A DNA stretch of 64,000 nucleotides from a phage: sequence record PZ386980.1. One strand, given 5' to 3'. The notes beneath the pieces are model-generated. The model made no database searches. It was not told the DNA's origin and saw only the letters and a program-made list of their open reading frames with translations. Shown in pieces: positions 1 to 32,849 of the stretch (position 1 is the stretch's first letter; each line of letters starts with the position of its first letter). Made by a program: the position numbers and the translations under genes.

Positions 1-1
1 T

Positions 2-529
2 TCTGAACCAAAATTAATCTATGCTGCTAACATGATGACAGTTTCCACGAAATACGCTAAACGTAACAATAAAACTTTCGGTTGGATTCGTCGTAAACTC
101 TGGGAAATAGAAAAGAATAAAGAATTCTCCCAGGAGACACGAAAGAAAATGTCTGATGCAGTAGCTAATAAAGCAAGACTAACTTGTCCACATTGCGGTA
201 AGTCCGGATTAAGCGGGAATATGAATCGATGGCATTTTGATAACTGCCCGAATCACCCTAATCCTAAAGTTAGACCACCGATGTCTAAAGAACACAGAAA
301 TAATATCTCAAACGGGCTTAAAGCAATCATTCTTGAAGAAACATCCTGCGAATTCTGCGGAATGATAGGCAAGAAATGCGTTATTGCAGCGCATAGAAAT
401 TTCTGCAAGAAAAATCCAAATGGACGCAAGAAAACTGAAAAGACTGGTACTTGCGTCCATTGTGGTAAAGTTACCACTTTCGGAAATTTATCAAGGTGGC
501 ATAATGATAACTGTAAGCACAAACATTAA
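2..529 (+). CDS. Partial CDS (5' end probably outside window): zinc-knuckle repeat / NUMOD3-like DNA-binding protein, possibly the C-terminal region of a homing endonuclease
   Basis: ORF track 32..529; frame stays open upstream to nt 2; three copies of C-x2-C-G-x(8-12)-H-x(2-3)-C with SxE(T/H)RxxxS-like motifs between them; only plus-strand gene in a minus-strand early block. Confidence 0.5.
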   Translation, partial: SEPKLIYAANMMTVSTKYAKRNNKTFGWIRRKLWEIEKNKEFSQETRKKMSDAVANKARLTCPHCGKSGLSGNMNRWHFDNCPNHPNPKVRPPMSKEHRNNISNGLKAIILEETSCEFCGMIGKKCVIAAHRNFCKKNPNGRKKTEKTGTCVHCGKVTTFGNLSRWHNDNCKHKH

Positions 530-2214
530 TTAATAGTGGCAACACTAAATCTACCAACTTTTTCCATTTTAATATGCTGTCCATAATCCTGCGGATCATG
601 GTCTTTATGCGAAATTATGAAGAAGTTGGTATCCTTCAAACCATCTAAAATTTTAGCTACATTTTTAATGCCTTCAGCATCAAATGCACCGTCATACACT
701 TCATCAAGAAATAAACAACTTATTTTAACACCTGAAACTTTTTCAGCAATATCACGCCAAGTAAATAAAAGAGCAATATCAATTCGCGCTTTTTCACCTT
801 GACTGAATGAAGCATAACTAAAATCTTCACGACCACGGGATTTAATTGTCTCATTAAATTCTTCATCTAATGTAAACACATAATCCGCTTCCATTATTTT
901 AAGATAATGGTTAATCTGCTTATTAAATAATGGAATGTACTTTTTAATAATAGCACCTTTAATACCAGAATCTTTGAGCATATCAGTCAAAATTCCTCGG
1001 TGGTATTTTTCCATTACTAAATTAGTTTTTGTCTTAACAATTTTATCAAGTTCTTCTTGAAGCAGTGCTATTTCATCAGCATGGTCAATAAACTCAGAAG
1101 ATGCTTTTTCTATAGCTGCTTTAACTTTTTTAGCTTTATCTACCGTCGTGATTAGAGATTGCTTTTTATTGCGAATATCATTTGCCAACGACTGCTGAGT
1201 TTTAATATTATCTCGGTATTCATCAACAAGAACTTTTAAATTATCACGGTGTGTTGAAAGCTGTTCAAACGAATGCGTACATTCAGAAACTTTATCTTTA
1301 ATTTTAGAAACAACTTTATCACCGGAACTTAATTGTGACAAACAGGTTGGACATAATCCACCTTCGTGATACATATTAATGACTTTATTATACGAGTCAA
1401 TTTTTGATTTAATTAAAACTGCTTCTTGACCGATTTTATTAAACGCATCAGTCGGATCTTCATCCAAAACAATATTAACTAATCTTTCATTAGCTTCTTC
1501 TATTTCCGATTTTAGCGTTCTAGCTTCTTTTGCCAAATCATCATACATATTTTGCAGACGAGTAAGATTGTCACCCGTTAATTTTTTCTGGCGTTCAACG
1601 TTATCATTATATATTTTAATTTGTTGGATAATACTATCTTTTTTAACATCAAGCACTTGGTTCTGCGAATTTAATTCACGTATTAGTGCTTTATTAAGCT
1701 TATCCATTTCAGCTAATGTTCCTACCTCAAGCAGGTCTTCCACAAGCTTTCTTCGTGCAGGGGTCGACAAACCCATGAAAGGGGTATACCCTGCTGTACC
1801 AAGGACAACAATCTGCTTGAAACTGGCATATGACATTCCGATAAGCTGTTCAAATTCTGCTTGGAAATCTTTACTGCTGGCAGATTCATTAAGACGTGTA
1901 CCGTTAACGGTGATTTCGAAAACGTTTGGTTTTTGTCCTCTTTTGATATAGTACTTTTTCTCATCATATTCCATCCACAGTTCAACTAAAAGTTCTTTCT
2001 TATTTGTGCTGTTTATTAATTGACCTTTCTTTACATCACGAAATGGCTTACCAAAAAGCCCAAATGTGATGGCTTCTAACATAGTAGACTTACCACCGCC
2101 ATTTCGTCCAGTAATAAGAGTTTTTTGAACCTTATCTAATTGAATGTCAACTCCATTTTGACCAACTGACATTATATTTTTATATTTTACTCTATTAAGT
2201 TTAAATGATTTCAT
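526..2214 (-). CDS. 46: Recombination endonuclease subunit gp46 (Rad50/SbcC-like ATPase)
   Basis: 562 aa; N-terminal Walker A GRNGGGKST, long central coiled coil; matches recalled T4 gp46; directly downstream of gene 47. Confidence 0.92.
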   Translation of the reverse strand: MKSFKLNRVKYKNIMSVGQNGVDIQLDKVQKTLITGRNGGGKSTMLEAITFGLFGKPFRDVKKGQLINSTNKKELLVELWMEYDEKKYYIKRGQKPNVFEITVNGTRLNESASSKDFQAEFEQLIGMSYASFKQIVVLGTAGYTPFMGLSTPARRKLVEDLLEVGTLAEMDKLNKALIRELNSQNQVLDVKKDSIIQQIKIYNDNVERQKKLTGDNLTRLQNMYDDLAKEARTLKSEIEEANERLVNIVLDEDPTDAFNKIGQEAVLIKSKIDSYNKVINMYHEGGLCPTCLSQLSSGDKVVSKIKDKVSECTHSFEQLSTHRDNLKVLVDEYRDNIKTQQSLANDIRNKKQSLITTVDKAKKVKAAIEKASSEFIDHADEIALLQEELDKIVKTKTNLVMEKYHRGILTDMLKDSGIKGAIIKKYIPLFNKQINHYLKIMEADYVFTLDEEFNETIKSRGREDFSYASFSQGEKARIDIALLFTWRDIAEKVSGVKISCLFLDEVYDGAFDAEGIKNVAKILDGLKDTNFFIISHKDHDPQDYGQHIKMEKVGRFSVATIN

Positions 2215-2229
2215 TTTGTATCCAATTGT

Positions 2230-2550
2230 TCACAATGAAGAAAATTCTTTAACTAAAGCCTGTAATGAAGCCTCTATTGGATATCCATTCTTAACTAACA
2301 TTTTCCTAAACATTACATGTTTAGGACGATTATATGATATCCACAATTCATACAATTTATCTTTATTATCCCAATGATAGCCTTTTCGTCGAGATGCTAT
2401 ATGAGCTTTTCTAATCTCCGGATTTTTCCAACTAGCAGCTACTGAATTTGATATAGCTATTTTATATTCAGGTTTTGATAAAGCAGCACGAACAGCCTTT
2501 TGGTGTTTAATTTTATTTTCTTCGTTATTAAACCATTCCCTTGAAGCCAT
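2230..2550 (-). CDS. HNH homing endonuclease, C-terminal DNA-binding portion (second ORF overlapping the catalytic ORF; possible frameshift or decayed gene)
   Basis: 106-aa ORF overlapping 2457..2550 of the upstream HNH ORF in another frame; basic, NUMOD-like repeats (KIKHQKAVRAALSKPEYKIAISNSVAASWKNPEIRKAH). Confidence 0.45.
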   Translation of the reverse strand: MASREWFNNEENKIKHQKAVRAALSKPEYKIAISNSVAASWKNPEIRKAHIASRRKGYHWDNKDKLYELWISYNRPKHVMFRKMLVKNGYPIEASLQALVKEFSSL

Positions 2551-3083
2551 TGAAATTTTTGTTTTGTTTTAAAATTATTTAATCTTTCTTTATTATCTTT
2601 CCTATTTTTTGCTACTGAAAAATATTTTAATGCCCTTTCTCTAGCAGCATTTCTATTTTGCGGATTTGAATAATACTGTTGAAGCCTTTTTGATATTGTG
2701 TCACTTACATCTTGTTTTATAAAACTATATTCAGCAGCTATTAAATCAACTTCGGCTAAAGATAAATTTTTATATGTTTTTCCTGACATCATTCTATTTA
2801 AAGCATTTAGCATTTTTCCATTTTTACCTTTTGCTAATAAGAAGTGTGCTTTAAAATGATTAAAATGACTTAAATTAACTAAATTCCATGTAGATTTTAA
2901 ATATTCAGGAAATATTGATTTAGGAAGCACGTGGTGTGCTTCCGTTTTACCTGGAGTTTTAACAGTTGAATTCACAGAAATAAAATTAATGTAAGACTTG
3001 GCGTCTTCTTCACTCAACGCTAATTTTTCAACTAATTCCTTTATTAAAAATTCATCATTAATGTCAAGTTTAAAATTCTTCAC
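2457..3083 (-). CDS. Freestanding HNH homing endonuclease (mob-like), N-terminal catalytic portion
   Basis: 208 aa; motif EAHHVLPKS...NLVNLSHFNHFKAH fits HNH (HH...N...N...H); GTG start overlapping TGA stop of the upstream ORF; basic C-terminal half. Confidence 0.6.
   Translation of the reverse strand: MKNFKLDINDEFLIKELVEKLALSEEDAKSYINFISVNSTVKTPGKTEAHHVLPKSIFPEYLKSTWNLVNLSHFNHFKAHFLLAKGKNGKMLNALNRMMSGKTYKNLSLAEVDLIAAEYSFIKQDVSDTISKRLQQYYSNPQNRNAARERALKYFSVAKNRKDNKERLNNFKTKQKFQWLQGNGLITKKIKLNTKRLFVLLYQNLNIK
3048..3067. repeat. Direct repeat copy A (aaattcatcattaatgtcaa) at the 5' end of the HNH ORF
   Basis: 20-nt perfect match to 3251..3270, similarity extends about 16 nt further; gives both ORFs a shared DINDEF N-terminal peptide. 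Confidence 0.8.
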
Positions 3084-3343
3084 AAAAGATTCCTTTTAAT
3101 GTATCTTTTAGACCATTCTATCATATCATCATAATCTAAAAAGTATTCATCAAATTCAGCCATGCAAACAACGCCTTGTGCTGTTTTTGATGTAATATAA
3201 ATTATTCCAACATATCTAGAATCTTCTTCGGTATAATCAATATTTGCTATAAATTCATCATTAATGTCAAATGTCGAAAACTTCACAGTATGCATCCTTA
3301 ATACAAGATACAGCCATATCTCGTAATGATTTAGGTGTGTCAT
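3080..3343 (-). CDS. Hypothetical protein (start uncertain; internal ATG at 3295)
   Basis: ORF track; contains FSTFDINDEF peptide duplicated at the start of the HNH ORF; overlaps neighbours. Confidence 0.4.
   Translation of the reverse strand: MTHLNHYEIWLYLVLRMHTVKFSTFDINDEFIANIDYTEEDSRYVGIIYITSKTAQGVVCMAEFDEYFLDYDDMIEWSKRYIKRNLL
3251..3270. repeat. Direct repeat copy B (aaattcatcattaatgtcaa)
   Basis: Perfect 20-nt match to 3048..3067 on the same strand. Confidence 0.8.
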
Positions 3344-3530
3344 TATCTAAAATGTTGAAGTTAAAAGATACAGCCCAGTCAGTGCAGACCGTAACCTTTT
3401 TAATACAATTATCTTCAACCTCTAACGGTTCAAACCAATATTCAATAATTTCTTTATGCCCAATATCATCTTTTACTTCGCATTCAAAATGCTGACTCAT
3501 CATAACATTTTTAAATTCATCAAAAGTCAT
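3267..3530 (-). CDS. Hypothetical small acidic protein
   Basis: ORF track; ATGA-type overlap with gene 47 stop. Confidence 0.45.
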   Translation of the reverse strand: MTFDEFKNVMMSQHFECEVKDDIGHKEIIEYWFEPLEVEDNCIKKVTVCTDWAVSFNFNILDNDTPKSLRDMAVSCIKDAYCEVFDI

Positions 3531-4546
3531 TGTGTTGCCTCTACATATAACTGATTTGCATATTGAATAAGTGCTTCGCGGTCAGAATCAGTGATGTCTG
3601 GAATTGCATTAATGTATTCTTCCATCAACGTCTGAAGAGATTGAACTTCAACTTCTTCGCTTTCATCTGACTCGACAGAGTTATCAATTTTTGACACAAC
3701 TCGTAATGAATGCACAACTTTTTCTAGTTCAGATTCGAACTTCGTCAGATTTTTGTCTACCTCAGTTACTATAACACGTACTGATAGATTTGTAAAATCT
3801 TTATAGTCAATTTTTCCTTTAAATGGATAATGAATTCTACGATGCCAGGTAGTATTGTTTGGAATAAATTCCATTCGTTCTGTTTCTGTATCAAACATCC
3901 AGAACCCGCGAGGGTCATTCTCGTCACCTGCAGTTAGTGTCCATGGTGTCCCAATATATCTGACGTTTGCAGCCTCAGAAATAGTATGGAAGTGACCAGA
4001 CCACACTTCTTTATAAGTCTTAAGGAAATCAGGTTCAAGACCGTGAGATTTCATTCCTTTATAAAAATAAAATCCATTCAGTTCCCAGTGACCAACACAA
4101 AAAGAAGCAGATGAAGTTTTTATGTGCTCGAGAATTTCACCAGTATTTTCTTCACACATCCAAGGAATTAAATCAATTAAACATCCGTCAAAATCTACTG
4201 TAGTAGGCTTATCATATACTTTAACATTAGGATATTTAGCCAAAAGCTCAGTAGAGGCATTTGGAGTTAAAGTATTTTTAAAGTGCATATCATGGTTTCC
4301 TACAACAGTATGTAGGGTAATACCAGCATCATCAAGCATTTGAACTATTTCACGAGCGAACTCCATAGTTTTATGCGTGATTGCTTTTCGCACATCAAAA
4401 ATATCGCCATATTGAATCCAGGTAGTAATTCCATTTTTCTTAGAATATTCTATTGCTTGTTTAATTCCATCCAACTGAATGGATTGAACCCACTCGTCAT
4501 CGGCTTTAACGCCTAAATGCCAATCACCTAAATTTAAAATTTTCAT
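3527..4546 (-). CDS. 47: Recombination endonuclease subunit gp47 (Mre11-like metallophosphatase)
   Basis: 339 aa; phosphoesterase motifs GDWHLG, YGDIFD, GNHDMH; matches recalled T4 gp47 length and N-terminus. Confidence 0.92.
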   Translation of the reverse strand: MKILNLGDWHLGVKADDEWVQSIQLDGIKQAIEYSKKNGITTWIQYGDIFDVRKAITHKTMEFAREIVQMLDDAGITLHTVVGNHDMHFKNTLTPNASTELLAKYPNVKVYDKPTTVDFDGCLIDLIPWMCEENTGEILEHIKTSSASFCVGHWELNGFYFYKGMKSHGLEPDFLKTYKEVWSGHFHTISEAANVRYIGTPWTLTAGDENDPRGFWMFDTETERMEFIPNNTTWHRRIHYPFKGKIDYKDFTNLSVRVIVTEVDKNLTKFESELEKVVHSLRVVSKIDNSVESDESEEVEVQSLQTLMEEYINAIPDITDSDREALIQYANQLYVEATQ

Positions 4547-4706
4547 ATATCAAGAACCGTCATTGAAATGCAAAATAAAATTATTGAAATAAACCCATCT
4601 GGTGTGCTAAAGAACCCAATCCAACATGCTCTAGTGAATAGATAAAATGCAAGAAAAAGTATCACATATCCAAGAAATATCATTATATCAAACTCCGTAT
4701 AAAGCT

Positions 4707-31695: not shown

Positions 31696-32282
31696 TGCAT
31701 TCCAATCACAAAAAATTGAGGACGAACTGTTTCACCTGTTTCAGCATTATAGCTTCGACAACAGTGTTGTACCGTTTTAATATGGATATTGTAAATCTTA
31801 TCCATATCAGGAGCTTTAATAGGTTCGTCAATTATGTACAAGATACGAGAAAGCGATAACCCACGGAATTTATGACCTTCATTACCGATAAAACTACGGA
31901 CAGAATCAGTAAATAAACGGAATCGAATATCATCGCTAGAATAACGAGAAAATTCTTTTTCAATGTTGCCAGCAGAAATTTTAGCGTAAGCTGAAGTATT
32001 AGAAAGAACAATAACTGTTCCGCCATCATACAGCCAATTAGCAGCAAAGTTAGTCACAGCAATTGATTTACCGGATTGACGTCCACCATCTATACGAAGT
32101 GTGCAGTACTGTTTGAGCACATCTTCCATTGGTGGAAGATAATCATTCTTACAAATTTCTTCTACTCTAGCATCAGAATGGTGTGTAAAAGCATTCATCA
32201 GGGATAGATAAGGACCAGTTAAAAATGTTCTCATTTTATTCTCTCTAAGTTTGGGCCATTCCGTGGCGCATGAATTGTCCAT
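31692..32282 (-). CDS. Small P-loop NTPase
   Basis: Walker A GGRQSGKS and Walker B ILYIIDE. Confidence 0.55.
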   Translation of the reverse strand: MDNSCATEWPKLRENKMRTFLTGPYLSLMNAFTHHSDARVEEICKNDYLPPMEDVLKQYCTLRIDGGRQSGKSIAVTNFAANWLYDGGTVIVLSNTSAYAKISAGNIEKEFSRYSSDDIRFRLFTDSVRSFIGNEGHKFRGLSLSRILYIIDEPIKAPDMDKIYNIHIKTVQHCCRSYNAETGETVRPQFFVIGMQ

Positions 32283-32375
32283 TTCTGTATTTACCCATTA
32301 CCGCACTTGGGCTCGACCTTATCACAGGTTGGCGGGAATCCCTCATAGAATCATGAGGTCCAGGTTGTTCCCATA

Positions 32376-32849
32376 TTATTTGAACGATTTAACGTACTGA
32401 ATAGAACCCTTACTATTCACAAAGGCAATTTTACCATTTTTATTATACATGGTAGCAGTACGCTGATAACCATAGGTTTGTTTACCAGATTGATAACCAA
32501 CTAATGCAAAATTATCTTCACCCATTTTATTCTGTTTAGCGCGAATGCGTTCATGACCATGTGCCATAAGAACCTTAGCATCACCAGTTGCAATGGATCG
32601 ACGAGTTTTTTCATCTTCAACTGCATTAACAAAGTCGTCAAATGAATCAAATTTAGCATGAGATTTATTATACAATTTTCCATCTACTGCATAATTATAT
32701 CCCTGTACATCCATCTCAACTTCTGTACCATCATCCAATACAGCAGTAATTTTTTGACCTTTTTTAAATTTCAAAAGATCAGTAAAAGATTCAGCAATAA
32801 TTTGAGAATTAATAGCTGCTTCAGTGATAAATTCTTGATATGTTTTCAT
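32376..32849 (-). CDS. Internal (head-packaged) protein with capsid-targeting sequence
   Basis: 157 aa; N-terminus MKTYQEFITEA matches the T4 internal-protein targeting pattern; lies upstream of denV rather than between denV and e. Confidence 0.7.
   Translation of the reverse strand: MKTYQEFITEAAINSQIIAESFTDLLKFKKGQKITAVLDDGTEVEMDVQGYNYAVDGKLYNKSHAKFDSFDDFVNAVEDEKTRRSIATGDAKVLMAHGHERIRAKQNKMGEDNFALVGYQSGKQTYGYQRTATMYNKNGKIAFVNSKGSIQYVKSFK

Follow-up and report, generated by a model that had tools for sequence, protein, structure and literature searches.

The region beside gene 46 is very probably a free-standing Mob-type HNH homing-endonuclease gene of T-even phages, which has become a young pseudogene in phages RB51 and RB68. 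The window (the whole stretch of DNA analyzed, 64,000 nt) was compared with these two phages and was 100% identical to both over positions 2100..3650. On the minus strand, the gene order was 47, 46.2, 46.1, the endonuclease gene, and 46. An earlier note on this DNA had placed the gene between 46 and 47; it does lie beside 46, but its exact place is between 46.1 and 46. The genes at the locus are:

526..2214, minus strand: gene 46, a Rad50/SbcC-like recombination nuclease subunit, the 5' end of which is occupied by the element.
2230..3083, minus strand: the whole homing-endonuclease pseudogene, 854 nt here versus 855 nt (284 aa) in intact alleles.
3080..3286, minus strand: gene 46.1 (DUF5487, 68 aa, GTG start), the resident gene immediately upstream of the endonuclease gene.

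The gene is already labeled "homing endonuclease" by RefSeq in RB68, PP01, and T6, and a 2010 review probably included it as the "other HNH" gene listed for T2, T6, and RB51. No paper characterizing the endonuclease gene beside gene 46 was found in the literature. Within 2100..4700, no T4 late promoter (TATAAATA) was detected, sigma-70-like promoter matches were at the chance-expected level, and no dedicated promoter was assigned.

The pseudogene consists of two ORFs that overlap by 94 nt (2457..2550), as the earlier note had described. These, and the site that separates their frames, are:

2457..3083, minus strand: ORF-a, 208 aa, GTG start, the RefSeq RB68 'homing endonuclease' YP_009167427.1.
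2230..2550, minus strand: ORF-b, 106 aa, shifted to the -1 frame with respect to ORF-a; it encodes the helical-repeat, putatively DNA-binding C-terminal part.
2556..2560, minus strand: the frameshift site, a coding-strand A5 run where at least 55 other records have A6.

In PP01, a single 855-nt ORF occupies the same position, and end-to-end alignment showed that the window differs from it by one substitution and by A5 in place of A6. At least 55 related records, T6 and PP01 included, carry the intact 855-nt, 284-aa gene at this position. When the 86 nt around the site were matched, 59 records were retrieved, 55 having A6 and four (all RB51/RB68) having A5. Residues 1-175 of ORF-a are authentic and contain the N-terminal HNH nuclease domain and the helical linker, and its last 33 residues are out of frame. 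Loss of one A from the A6 run in RB51/RB68 takes translation out of the authentic frame after residue 175, and the stop reached 33 codons further on detaches the DNA-binding half from the nuclease domain. Being a single base, the lesion is very recent.

Other phages and contigs break the gene at other places. T2 and SV76 have a -2 deletion at position 609-610 of the endonuclease gene, on which all seven listed records agree (six T2 deposits and SV76); MLP2 has -1 at 727, and G2133 a +7 tandem duplication at 268. Metagenome contigs showed +1 at 474, +1 at 312, -1 at 474, and the nonsense change R167*, and one variant had a C-terminal frameshift. The breakpoints of the other decayed alleles all differ (residues ~90, 104, 158, 167, 203, and 243), and the broken alleles are for this reason the outcome of random decay, not of programmed frameshifting. 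Of the two readings that the earlier note had offered, a frameshifted, decaying endonuclease gene is thus borne out by the single-A deletion relative to the gene intact in most relatives and by the differing lesions elsewhere; programmed frameshifting is not.

It is very improbable that CAA-AAA-T serves as a site of programmed -1 ribosomal frameshifting or of transcriptional slippage, allowing regulated low expression of the full-length protein. A -1 slip of lysine-tRNA on AAA, or an extra A added by RNA polymerase, would restore ...KTKQK-ISMASREW, and both frames are open over 2459..2568. Yet the two-frame state is derived and private to the RB51/RB68 lineage, the relatives with A6 encoding a continuous frame, so that the site is not conserved as a two-frame site. 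There is neither an X-XXY-YYZ heptamer (CAAAAAT has only five A's) nor a Shine-Dalgarno-like stimulator upstream, and the 77 nt downstream folded no better than shuffled sequences (z = +0.88), which argues against a stimulatory RNA structure. A run of five A's is too short for efficient transcriptional slippage. The +7 duplication and the nonsense codon, moreover, lie at unrelated sites and could not be repaired by slippage.

The frameshift could also be a homopolymer sequencing or assembly error, with the gene intact in the real phage, and the chance of this is slight. Single-base changes in A/T homopolymers are a classic kind of error, and the lesion is confined to the RB51/RB68 records. A5 is, however, common to two separately deposited genomes, the RB51 record FJ839693 being the earlier deposit, and the RB68 genome is a de novo assembly of MiSeq data with 3,187x coverage (PMC4293622); a sequencing error in RB51/RB68 is unlikely given this deep assembly and the separate RB51 deposit. 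Illumina reads runs of 5-6 nt reliably, and similar lesions, at other sites, are real in T2, MLP2, and G2133.

Still less credible is that ORF-a and ORF-b are separate functional genes, an HNH nuclease and a small DNA-binding protein that possibly form a split enzyme. ORF-a does retain the whole catalytic domain, and ORF-b opens with an ATG of its own, which encodes an internal Met when the gene is intact. This ATG is not preceded by a Shine-Dalgarno sequence (AAAACAAAAATTTCAATG), the relatives have a single fused gene rather than two independent conserved ones, and no split is conserved among the decayed alleles. The RB51/RB68 frameshift is nothing unusual for a decaying element of this kind and is annotated already. 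Its direct importance is small, the gene having been annotated before and a frameshifted copy being expected from the selfish-gene life cycle.

The HNH-like motif that the earlier note had pointed to, EAHHVLPKS...NLVNLSHFNHFKAH, is present in ORF-a and marks the following feature:

2832..2951, minus strand: HNH catalytic core, residues 45-84 (GKTEAHHVLPKS...WNLVNLS...H..AH).

The conserved His...Asn...His catalytic motif of the HNH superfamily reads here as EAHHVLPKS..WNLVNLS..H..AH. Across 94 homologues, H50, H51, P54, H76, and H80 were invariant and N67 was nearly so (at least 90% conserved). PHROG 655 ('homing endonuclease') matched with 7.8e-45 and PHROG 12434 ('HNH endonuclease') with 4e-15. 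The HMM search for HNH and NUMOD domains proposed in the earlier note had a divided outcome: neither HNH nor NUMOD was matched when the two ORFs and the intact protein were scanned with Pfam and NCBIfam models, but the PHROG HNH families and Pfam-HNH-positive homologues did match. The family was therefore assigned via PHROGs and homologues. Among the 94 homologues, Pfam NUMOD3 was found in 50, Pfam HNH (PF01844) in 13, and an I-HmuI NUMOD-like domain in three. The NUMOD3 motifs were C-terminal to the HNH core in the homologues checked (P0087 and P0115), and the Pfam HNH match of P0087, the one homologue checked for this, aligned with residues 45-71 of the protein. As judged by profiles, the putative membership in the HNH superfamily rests on transitive homology.

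Named Mob proteins were also recovered, in addition to PHROG 655: tblastn aligned MobD (29.6% identity, 4e-11) and MobE (25% identity, 7e-5) over about 80% of the endonuclease length. Searches of PDB sequences with the endonuclease (phmmer and profiles) returned nothing relevant, and Foldseek with the full-length model returned helical-bundle noise only. In the AlphaFold model, the HNH core was formed by a strand (47-51), a second strand (68-72), and a helix (73-86), and the N-terminal domain, containing this strand-strand-helix element, had a pLDDT of 92. On these comparisons, the product is predicted to be a free-standing Mob-type HNH homing endonuclease with an N-terminal HNH domain and a C-terminal helical-repeat, putative DNA-binding region.

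The closest known systems are T4 MobD and MobE, the latter being a characterized free-standing 'Mob' HNH homing endonuclease (PMC2790892). They belong to the same family and have the same layout, with the HNH motif at the N-terminus and a repeat region at the C-terminus; like the gene studied here, they stand free between conserved T-even genes, are patchy in close relatives, and have no promoter of their own. The present gene differs in its locus, which is upstream of gene 46 and not near nrd or the other Mob sites, in its capture of the start codon and first six codons of an essential neighbor, for which it supplies a spare start, and in that the copy in the window is frameshifted. In architecture it resembles I-HmuI and related enzymes of Bacillus phages, in which NUMOD-type DNA-binding modules come after the HNH catalytic motif. 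I-HmuI, in contrast, is an intron-encoded nicking enzyme, and its solved structure gives no detectable direct sequence match to the endonuclease.

As to decay, the several independent lesions across relatives resemble the homing-endonuclease decay cycle reportedly modeled by Goddard and Burt. Both in that cycle and in I-TevIII, which is defunct in the T4 nrdB intron (PMC2790892), an endonuclease gene that still occupies its site is disabled through small lesions. The difference from I-TevIII is that the RB51/RB68 lesion is a single base and that the majority of sequenced carriers still have the gene intact.

The element is best read as an insert of 869 nt that follows codon 6 of gene 46. Its junctions contain the following features:

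3066..3083, minus strand: the captured original gene 46 start, GTGAAGAATTTTAAACTT, which agrees with T4 gene 46 at each of its first 18 nt.
2215..2229, minus strand: the spacer from the endonuclease stop to the new gene 46 ATG, 15 nt, ACAATTGGATACAAA.
2197..2214, minus strand: the replacement gene 46 start (MKSFKL), ATGAAATCATTTAAACTT, brought by the 3' end of the insert.

T4 is without the insert, and its gene 46.1 stop overlaps the GTG start of gene 46. In the window, the captured gene 46 start and the upstream Shine-Dalgarno AAGGA begin the endonuclease ORF and overlap the gene 46.1 stop. For its translation the endonuclease uses what were originally the Shine-Dalgarno sequence, the GTG start, and the first six codons belonging to gene 46; gene 46 in turn receives a new ribosome site, ATG, and first six codons from the 3' end of the insert. 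The new ribosome-binding region of gene 46, carried by the 15-nt spacer, is the weaker one. The replacement and captured starts are identical at 13 of 18 positions, and the first 15 nt of the replacement match the gene 46 start of RB69/PNJ-6. The 9-nt sequence TTTAAACTT at 2197..2205 recurs perfectly, in direct orientation, at 3066..3074. The earlier note had suggested that the cassette was inserted with duplication of a resident gene start; a duplication is indeed present, but the gene concerned is 46 (3066..3083 versus 2197..2214), not 46.1. The locus cleanly illustrates how a mobile gene can take the translation start of an essential neighbor and bring a replacement.

The distribution of the insert is patchy: it was present in approximately 72 of 518 matching records, and the 46.1/46 junction was uninterrupted in the other 446. 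The flanks were 95-100% identical between records with and without the gene, i.e., presence and absence are polymorphic at one precise site in near-identical genomes. Immediately inside gene 46, a further feature is linked to the gene:

2139..2197, minus strand: the variant patch, gene 46 nt 18-76, 59 nt, protein NRVKYKNIMSVGQNG, which travels with the endonuclease gene.

In the commonest endonuclease-free allele (Sf22 type), the patch protein reads NRVRYQNIMSVGGNP. Within Tequatrovirus, the Sf22-type allele differed from T4 and the gene-carrying alleles at 14 positions, all of them inside gene 46 nt 18-76, beginning exactly at the insertion point. Orthologues of the endonuclease (44% identity) were found immediately upstream of gene 46, in place of 46.1, in Mosigvirus PNJ-9 and Gelderlandvirus UoN_LG358_1. 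In these two genera, nearly all differences between carriers and their gene-free congeners fell in the first ~60 nt of gene 46, where the carriers resemble the Tequatrovirus sequence. In Tequatrovirus, Mosigvirus, and Gelderlandvirus alike, a patch of 40-60 nt at the beginning of gene 46 goes with the endonuclease gene, as expected if flanking sequence is co-converted with it.

In the 'intronless homing' of T4 SegF, SegG, and MobE-type enzymes, the target lies in a neighboring gene and flanking markers are co-converted (PMC2988022, PMC2993671). The inheritance of a short variant tract in an adjacent essential gene together with the endonuclease gene, in three genera, is alike; the difference is that the pattern described here comes from sequence comparison. 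The 59-nt patch probably marks the cleavage target and immunity to cleavage, although it could reflect plain linkage instead of immunity. We infer that in mixed infections the intact alleles (T6, PP01) cut endonuclease-free genomes within the 5' portion of gene 46, and that recombinational repair would copy the gene across with the short protective patch, gene 46 nt 18-76. The target predicted by the comparison is the ancestral form of gene 46 codons about 7-22.

A second homology, apart from the duplicated gene 46 start, links the endonuclease gene to gene 46.1. It is the perfect 20-nt direct repeat AAATTCATCATTAATGTCAA with the shared peptide DINDEF, which the earlier note had reported correctly:

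3048..3067, minus strand: copy 1, the last two bases of endonuclease codon 6 and codons 7-12 (DINDEF).
3251..3270, minus strand: copy 2, at the same offset in gene 46.1.

The 20-mer had exactly two copies in the 64-kb window and no further ones even at three mismatches, so that it is not a common motif of this genome, which the earlier note had named as a ground for refutation; none of the three refuting conditions in that note overturns its finding outright. In PP01, T2, and T4, the gene 46.1 copy matched at only 19 of 20 nt. DINDEF occupies codons 7-12 of both genes in exact register, and is N-terminal in gene 46.1 only if translation starts at the GTG at 3286 and not at the ATG at 3343. The annotated GTG is favored by the Pfam DUF5487 model and the RefSeq annotation, and PHROG 2327 matched the GTG-start product end to end. 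The 5' end of the endonuclease gene is consequently a mosaic, in which 18 nt of the gene 46 start are joined via a 2-nt overlap to 46.1 codons 7-12. In Mosigvirus PNJ-9, the endonuclease begins with MTKTDYE, the first seven codons of Mosigvirus 46.1.

It is possible, although doubtful, that the mosaic 5' end records a move of the gene from replacing 46.1 to a place inside the first codons of an essential gene, with T4 as a 'scar' allele. We infer the repeat to be a relic of an earlier endonuclease gene that replaced 46.1 and kept its first codons, an arrangement still visible in Mosigvirus. A later join through short imperfect homology, from codon 6 of the recipient gene 46 to codon 7 of the 46.1-endonuclease fusion, would yield the present mosaic.

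The repeats might instead be transposase-like target-site duplications, or the 20-nt repeat a chance match or a later gene-conversion patch of no historical meaning; together, these readings are unlikely. The perfect 9-nt repeat flanking the 869-nt insert is superficially like a target-site duplication, but the flanking similarity extends to the 13/18 nt noted above with the same peptide, MK(N/S)FKL, and the downstream copy corresponds to the way gene 46 natively begins in a different genus (RB69: ATGAAATCATTTAAA), so that it is a homologous gene start acquired from outside rather than the product of a staggered cut. The 20-mer may be a product of local gene conversion. Chance is opposed by the shuffling of 2101..3600, in which an exact 20-nt repeat arose in 0 of 300 shuffles and the longest direct repeat never exceeded 17 nt, by the common codon register, and by the same kind of fusion to the 46.1 5' end in the Mosigvirus orthologue. 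In favor of these alternatives, the ancestral Tequatrovirus arrangement (46.1 N-terminus fused to the endonuclease, complete 46.1 absent) was found in no record examined. Viral contigs contained zero copies of the ancestral junction (46.1 codons 1-12 and endonuclease), but the control with the present-day junction was also zero; a metagenome scan with an endonuclease-specific 32-mer gave zero as well, these collections being without the element and uninformative on the ancestral junction.

If the move from 46.1 into gene 46 did take place, it would have occurred by break repair through short imperfect homology, capturing the gene 46 translation start and delivering a substitute. In T4, a deletion between the 9-nt repeats would then have removed the endonuclease gene and left the protective gene 46 patch in place. 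On this basis, T4 is predicted to be resistant to the enzyme and approximately 370 Sf22-type phage records to be susceptible. The comparison also sorts T-even phages into predicted carrier, immune-scar (T4), and susceptible classes, a sorting of relevance to marker exclusion during mixed infection and to phage cocktails.

The following features were placed between genes 47 and 46:

3527..4546, minus strand, gene 47
3267..3530, minus strand, gene 46.2
3080..3286, minus strand, gene 46.1, GTG start
2457..3083, minus strand, ORF-a, N-terminal HNH part of the endonuclease gene, 208 aa, GTG start
2556..2560, plus-strand positions, frameshift run, A5 in the window and A6 in PP01
2230..2550, minus strand, ORF-b, C-terminal part of the same gene, 106 aa
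526..2214, minus strand, gene 46

ORF-a and ORF-b were present as the earlier note described them, including the 94-nt overlap. For gene 46.1, the supported start was GTG at 3286 (68 aa, with 20 nt shared with the gene 46.2 end), and the 87-aa mechanical ORF at 3080..3343 is too long. No T4 late promoter and no convincing sigma-70 promoter was found near the endonuclease gene, and it is presumably transcribed on an mRNA spanning genes 47 to 46. The 208-aa ORF of RB68 is labelled "homing endonuclease" in RefSeq. In the RB51 GenBank record the interval has no annotation and ORF numbers 059 and 060 are skipped across it, so the annotators apparently dropped the two fragments.

Window positions 2100..3650 were 100% identical to RB51 and RB68. 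PP01 has one continuous 855-nt "homing endonuclease" gene (284 aa) at the same position, from which the window differed in the alignment by one substitution and one missing A. Of 59 records with a match to the 86 nt that surround the run, 55 had A6, and A5 was found only in the four RB51/RB68 records. The RB68 genome is a de novo MiSeq assembly with 3,187x coverage (PMC4293622), and RB51 was deposited separately and earlier; the loss of the single A is therefore almost certainly a genuine change inherited in the RB51/RB68 lineage. ORF-a of these phages keeps the nuclease domain, with the last 33 residues out of frame, and ORF-b, the presumed DNA-binding part, lacks a ribosome-binding site of its own.

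The gene was intact in T6 and most other carriers, and elsewhere it was broken differently and at scattered sites: two A's were missing at gene position 609-610 in T2 and SV76, one A was missing at 727 in MLP2, and G2133 had a 7-nt tandem duplication at 268. Metagenome contigs encoding the exact ORF-b protein had one additional A at 474, one additional A at 312, one A fewer at 474 (two contigs), or a nonsense codon (R167*), and the protein cluster included one variant with a frameshifted C-terminus. The frameshifted, decaying gene proposed in the earlier note was thus borne out. Its alternative, programmed frameshifting that joins ORF-a and ORF-b, was not: the lesions elsewhere were scattered and several lay beyond rescue by slippage. 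In principle, a −1 slip at the A5 run would recover the wild-type sequence exactly, but programmed frameshifting was rated as highly improbable, because the run has no canonical slippery heptamer, no Shine-Dalgarno-like element lies upstream, and the downstream 77 nt folded no better than shuffled sequence (z = +0.88). At most, a trace of spontaneous slippage could occur in RB51/RB68.

The HNH assignment held. Pfam and NCBIfam scans gave no direct match to the endonuclease protein, which, taken literally, counts against it, but PHROG profiles and homologues supported it firmly. PHROG 655 ("homing endonuclease") matched residues 1-282 (7.8e-45) and PHROG 12434 ("HNH endonuclease") also matched (4e-15). 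In tblastn against phage genomes, MobD was found (29.6% identity over residues 47-281, 4e-11), together with MobE and many genes annotated as Mob-like, HNH or NUMOD3. A profile search gathered 129 homologues; of 94 aligned, 50 had Pfam NUMOD3 and 13 Pfam HNH. The Pfam HNH match of one homologue, P0087 (30.4 bits, its residues 21-45), aligned with residues 45-71 here. H50, H51, P54, H76 and H80 were invariant and N67 nearly so. By homology, and functionally as predicted from sequence, the protein belongs with the free-standing HNH homing endonucleases of Mob type. The codons of the catalytic TEAHHVLP motif coincide exactly with an inverted repeat, GGAAGCAC-GTGGT-GTGCTTCC (2923..2943); it has 8-bp arms, to which the scan adds a ninth G-T pair, was flagged as terminator-like on the plus (antisense) strand, and may have arisen from the HH codons by chance.

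T4 has no endonuclease gene, and its gene 46.1 stop overlaps the GTG start of gene 46. In the T4/window alignment, the ORF-a start, GTGAAGAATTTTAAACTT, was the same as nt 1-18 of T4 gene 46, and the AAGGA before it and its overlap with the stop of 46.1 were shared too. In the window, gene 46 starts differently, with ATGAAATCATTTAAACTT (MKSFKL); this start follows a 15-nt spacer and lies where the insert ends on its 3' side. The 869-nt insert has a copy of TTTAAACTT, a perfect 9-nt repeat, on either side (3066..3074 and 2197..2205). The earlier note had proposed an insertion that duplicated the resident start. A start is indeed duplicated, but since the endonuclease ORF opens with the T4 gene 46 start and gene 46 was given another, the gene concerned is 46. 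Over its first 15 nt the substitute agrees with the gene 46 start native to Mosigvirus RB69 and PNJ-6, so it is an imported homologous start, and transposase-type target duplication was rejected. As read from these alignments, the element has taken over the gene 46 translation signals and brought a substitute. A natural variant from Logan assemblies, P0134 (290 aa), has a frameshift near the 3' end (...KEFLHCEQLDTK). Judged from the window sequence, this would put its stop on the gene 46 ATG (ATGA overlap), which, if true, would couple translation of endonuclease and gene 46.

The 20-nt perfect direct repeat was confirmed: AAATTCATCATTAATGTCAA occurs exactly at 3048..3067 and 3251..3270, with no further copies in the 64 kb at up to three mismatches, and direct repeats longer than 17 nt never arose in shuffles of 2101..3600. 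On its coding strand, the endonuclease gene begins with gene 46 nt 1-18 and continues with a stretch that equals gene 46.1 nt 17-36; two nucleotides (TT) belong to both pieces. In both genes the repeat spans codons 6-12 and lies equally far from a GTGAAG start. It matches at 19/20 positions in PP01, T2 and T4, with one more synonymous change in T2, and is thus old and not maintained at the DNA level. Mosigvirus PNJ-9 and Gelderlandvirus UoN_LG358_1 have orthologues of 44% identity directly before gene 46, in both cases in place of 46.1. The first seven codons of the PNJ-9 endonuclease (MTKTDYE) are those of Mosigvirus 46.1 (start in RB69 and PNJ-6, MTKTDYEIHRHEF). By analogy, the Tequatrovirus gene may once have formed a fusion with codons 1-12 of 46.1; codon 6 of a recipient gene 46 would then have joined codon 7 of the fusion via short imperfect homology, giving the present arrangement and retaining a complete 46.1. 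The two start regions are 12/18 identical, with similar Shine-Dalgarno contexts. This history of fusion and joining is tentative, at somewhat below an even chance, and later local gene conversion is another possible origin of the repeat. Public contig collections gave no match to the intermediate fusion and proved uninformative on this point.

The insert was found in ~72 records and an uninterrupted junction, of two classes, in 446. The commoner class, the Sf22 type (~370 records), had 14 differences from T4, all in gene 46 nt 18-76, from the exact insertion point onward; the preceding 60 nt and nt 77-150 showed none (T4 locus L005 1726..1845, Sf22 locus L021 301..420). Its protein, NRVRYQNIMSVGGNP, is shared by Mosigvirus genomes that lack the gene and is close to that of Gelderlandvirus S16; NRVKYKNIMSVGQNG is the reading in T4 and all genomes with the endonuclease gene. 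T4 and ~75 other records have this gene-linked patch and no endonuclease gene; the ~370 Sf22-type records have the patch in its ancestral form. In Mosigvirus and Gelderlandvirus, carriers differ from non-carrier congeners almost only at gene 46 nt ~9-66, where they resemble the Tequatrovirus version; identity was 35/60 in the first 60 nt of gene 46 and ~99% beyond. On sequence grounds, intronless homing that co-converts a short tract would be expected to leave such a pattern. The pattern points to the ancestral form of gene 46 codons ~7-22 as the predicted target of the enzyme, and suggests that carriers are protected by the patch. Since the T4 allele is the carrier allele minus the 869-nt insert, as deletion between the 9-nt repeats would leave it, T4 may have lost the insert in this way and be an immune "scar" allele.

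T4 MobD and MobE are of the same kind, free-standing Mob-type HNH homing endonucleases (MobE characterised in PMC2790892; reviews, PMC2988022 and PMC2993671). The one "other HNH" gene given each for T2, T6 and RB51 (Table 5, PMC2993671) is probably this gene, and the literature search found no paper characterising the endonuclease gene upstream of gene 46. The finding is real but ordinary, an annotated selfish gene in a recently inactivated copy. What it adds is small and directly testable: a captured start codon, a mosaic 5' end, and a predicted target and immunity patch.

A second homing-endonuclease gene, RB68_055 (237 aa; window 1..529, plus strand; in full at 31961..32674 of the RB68 record), converges on the gene 46 3' end from the opposite strand, overlapping its stop by 4 nt, so that endonuclease genes lie on both sides of gene 46. 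T4 has nothing at this position. The part in the window is C-terminal only, with CxxC/CxxH zinc-finger-like repeats and weak NUMOD3 and PHROG 655 matches. In 60-nt blocks, the adjoining last ~300 nt of gene 46 (526..834, minus strand) had only 73-92% identity to T4, compared with 92-100% for the remainder, and may be another exchanged or co-converted tract.
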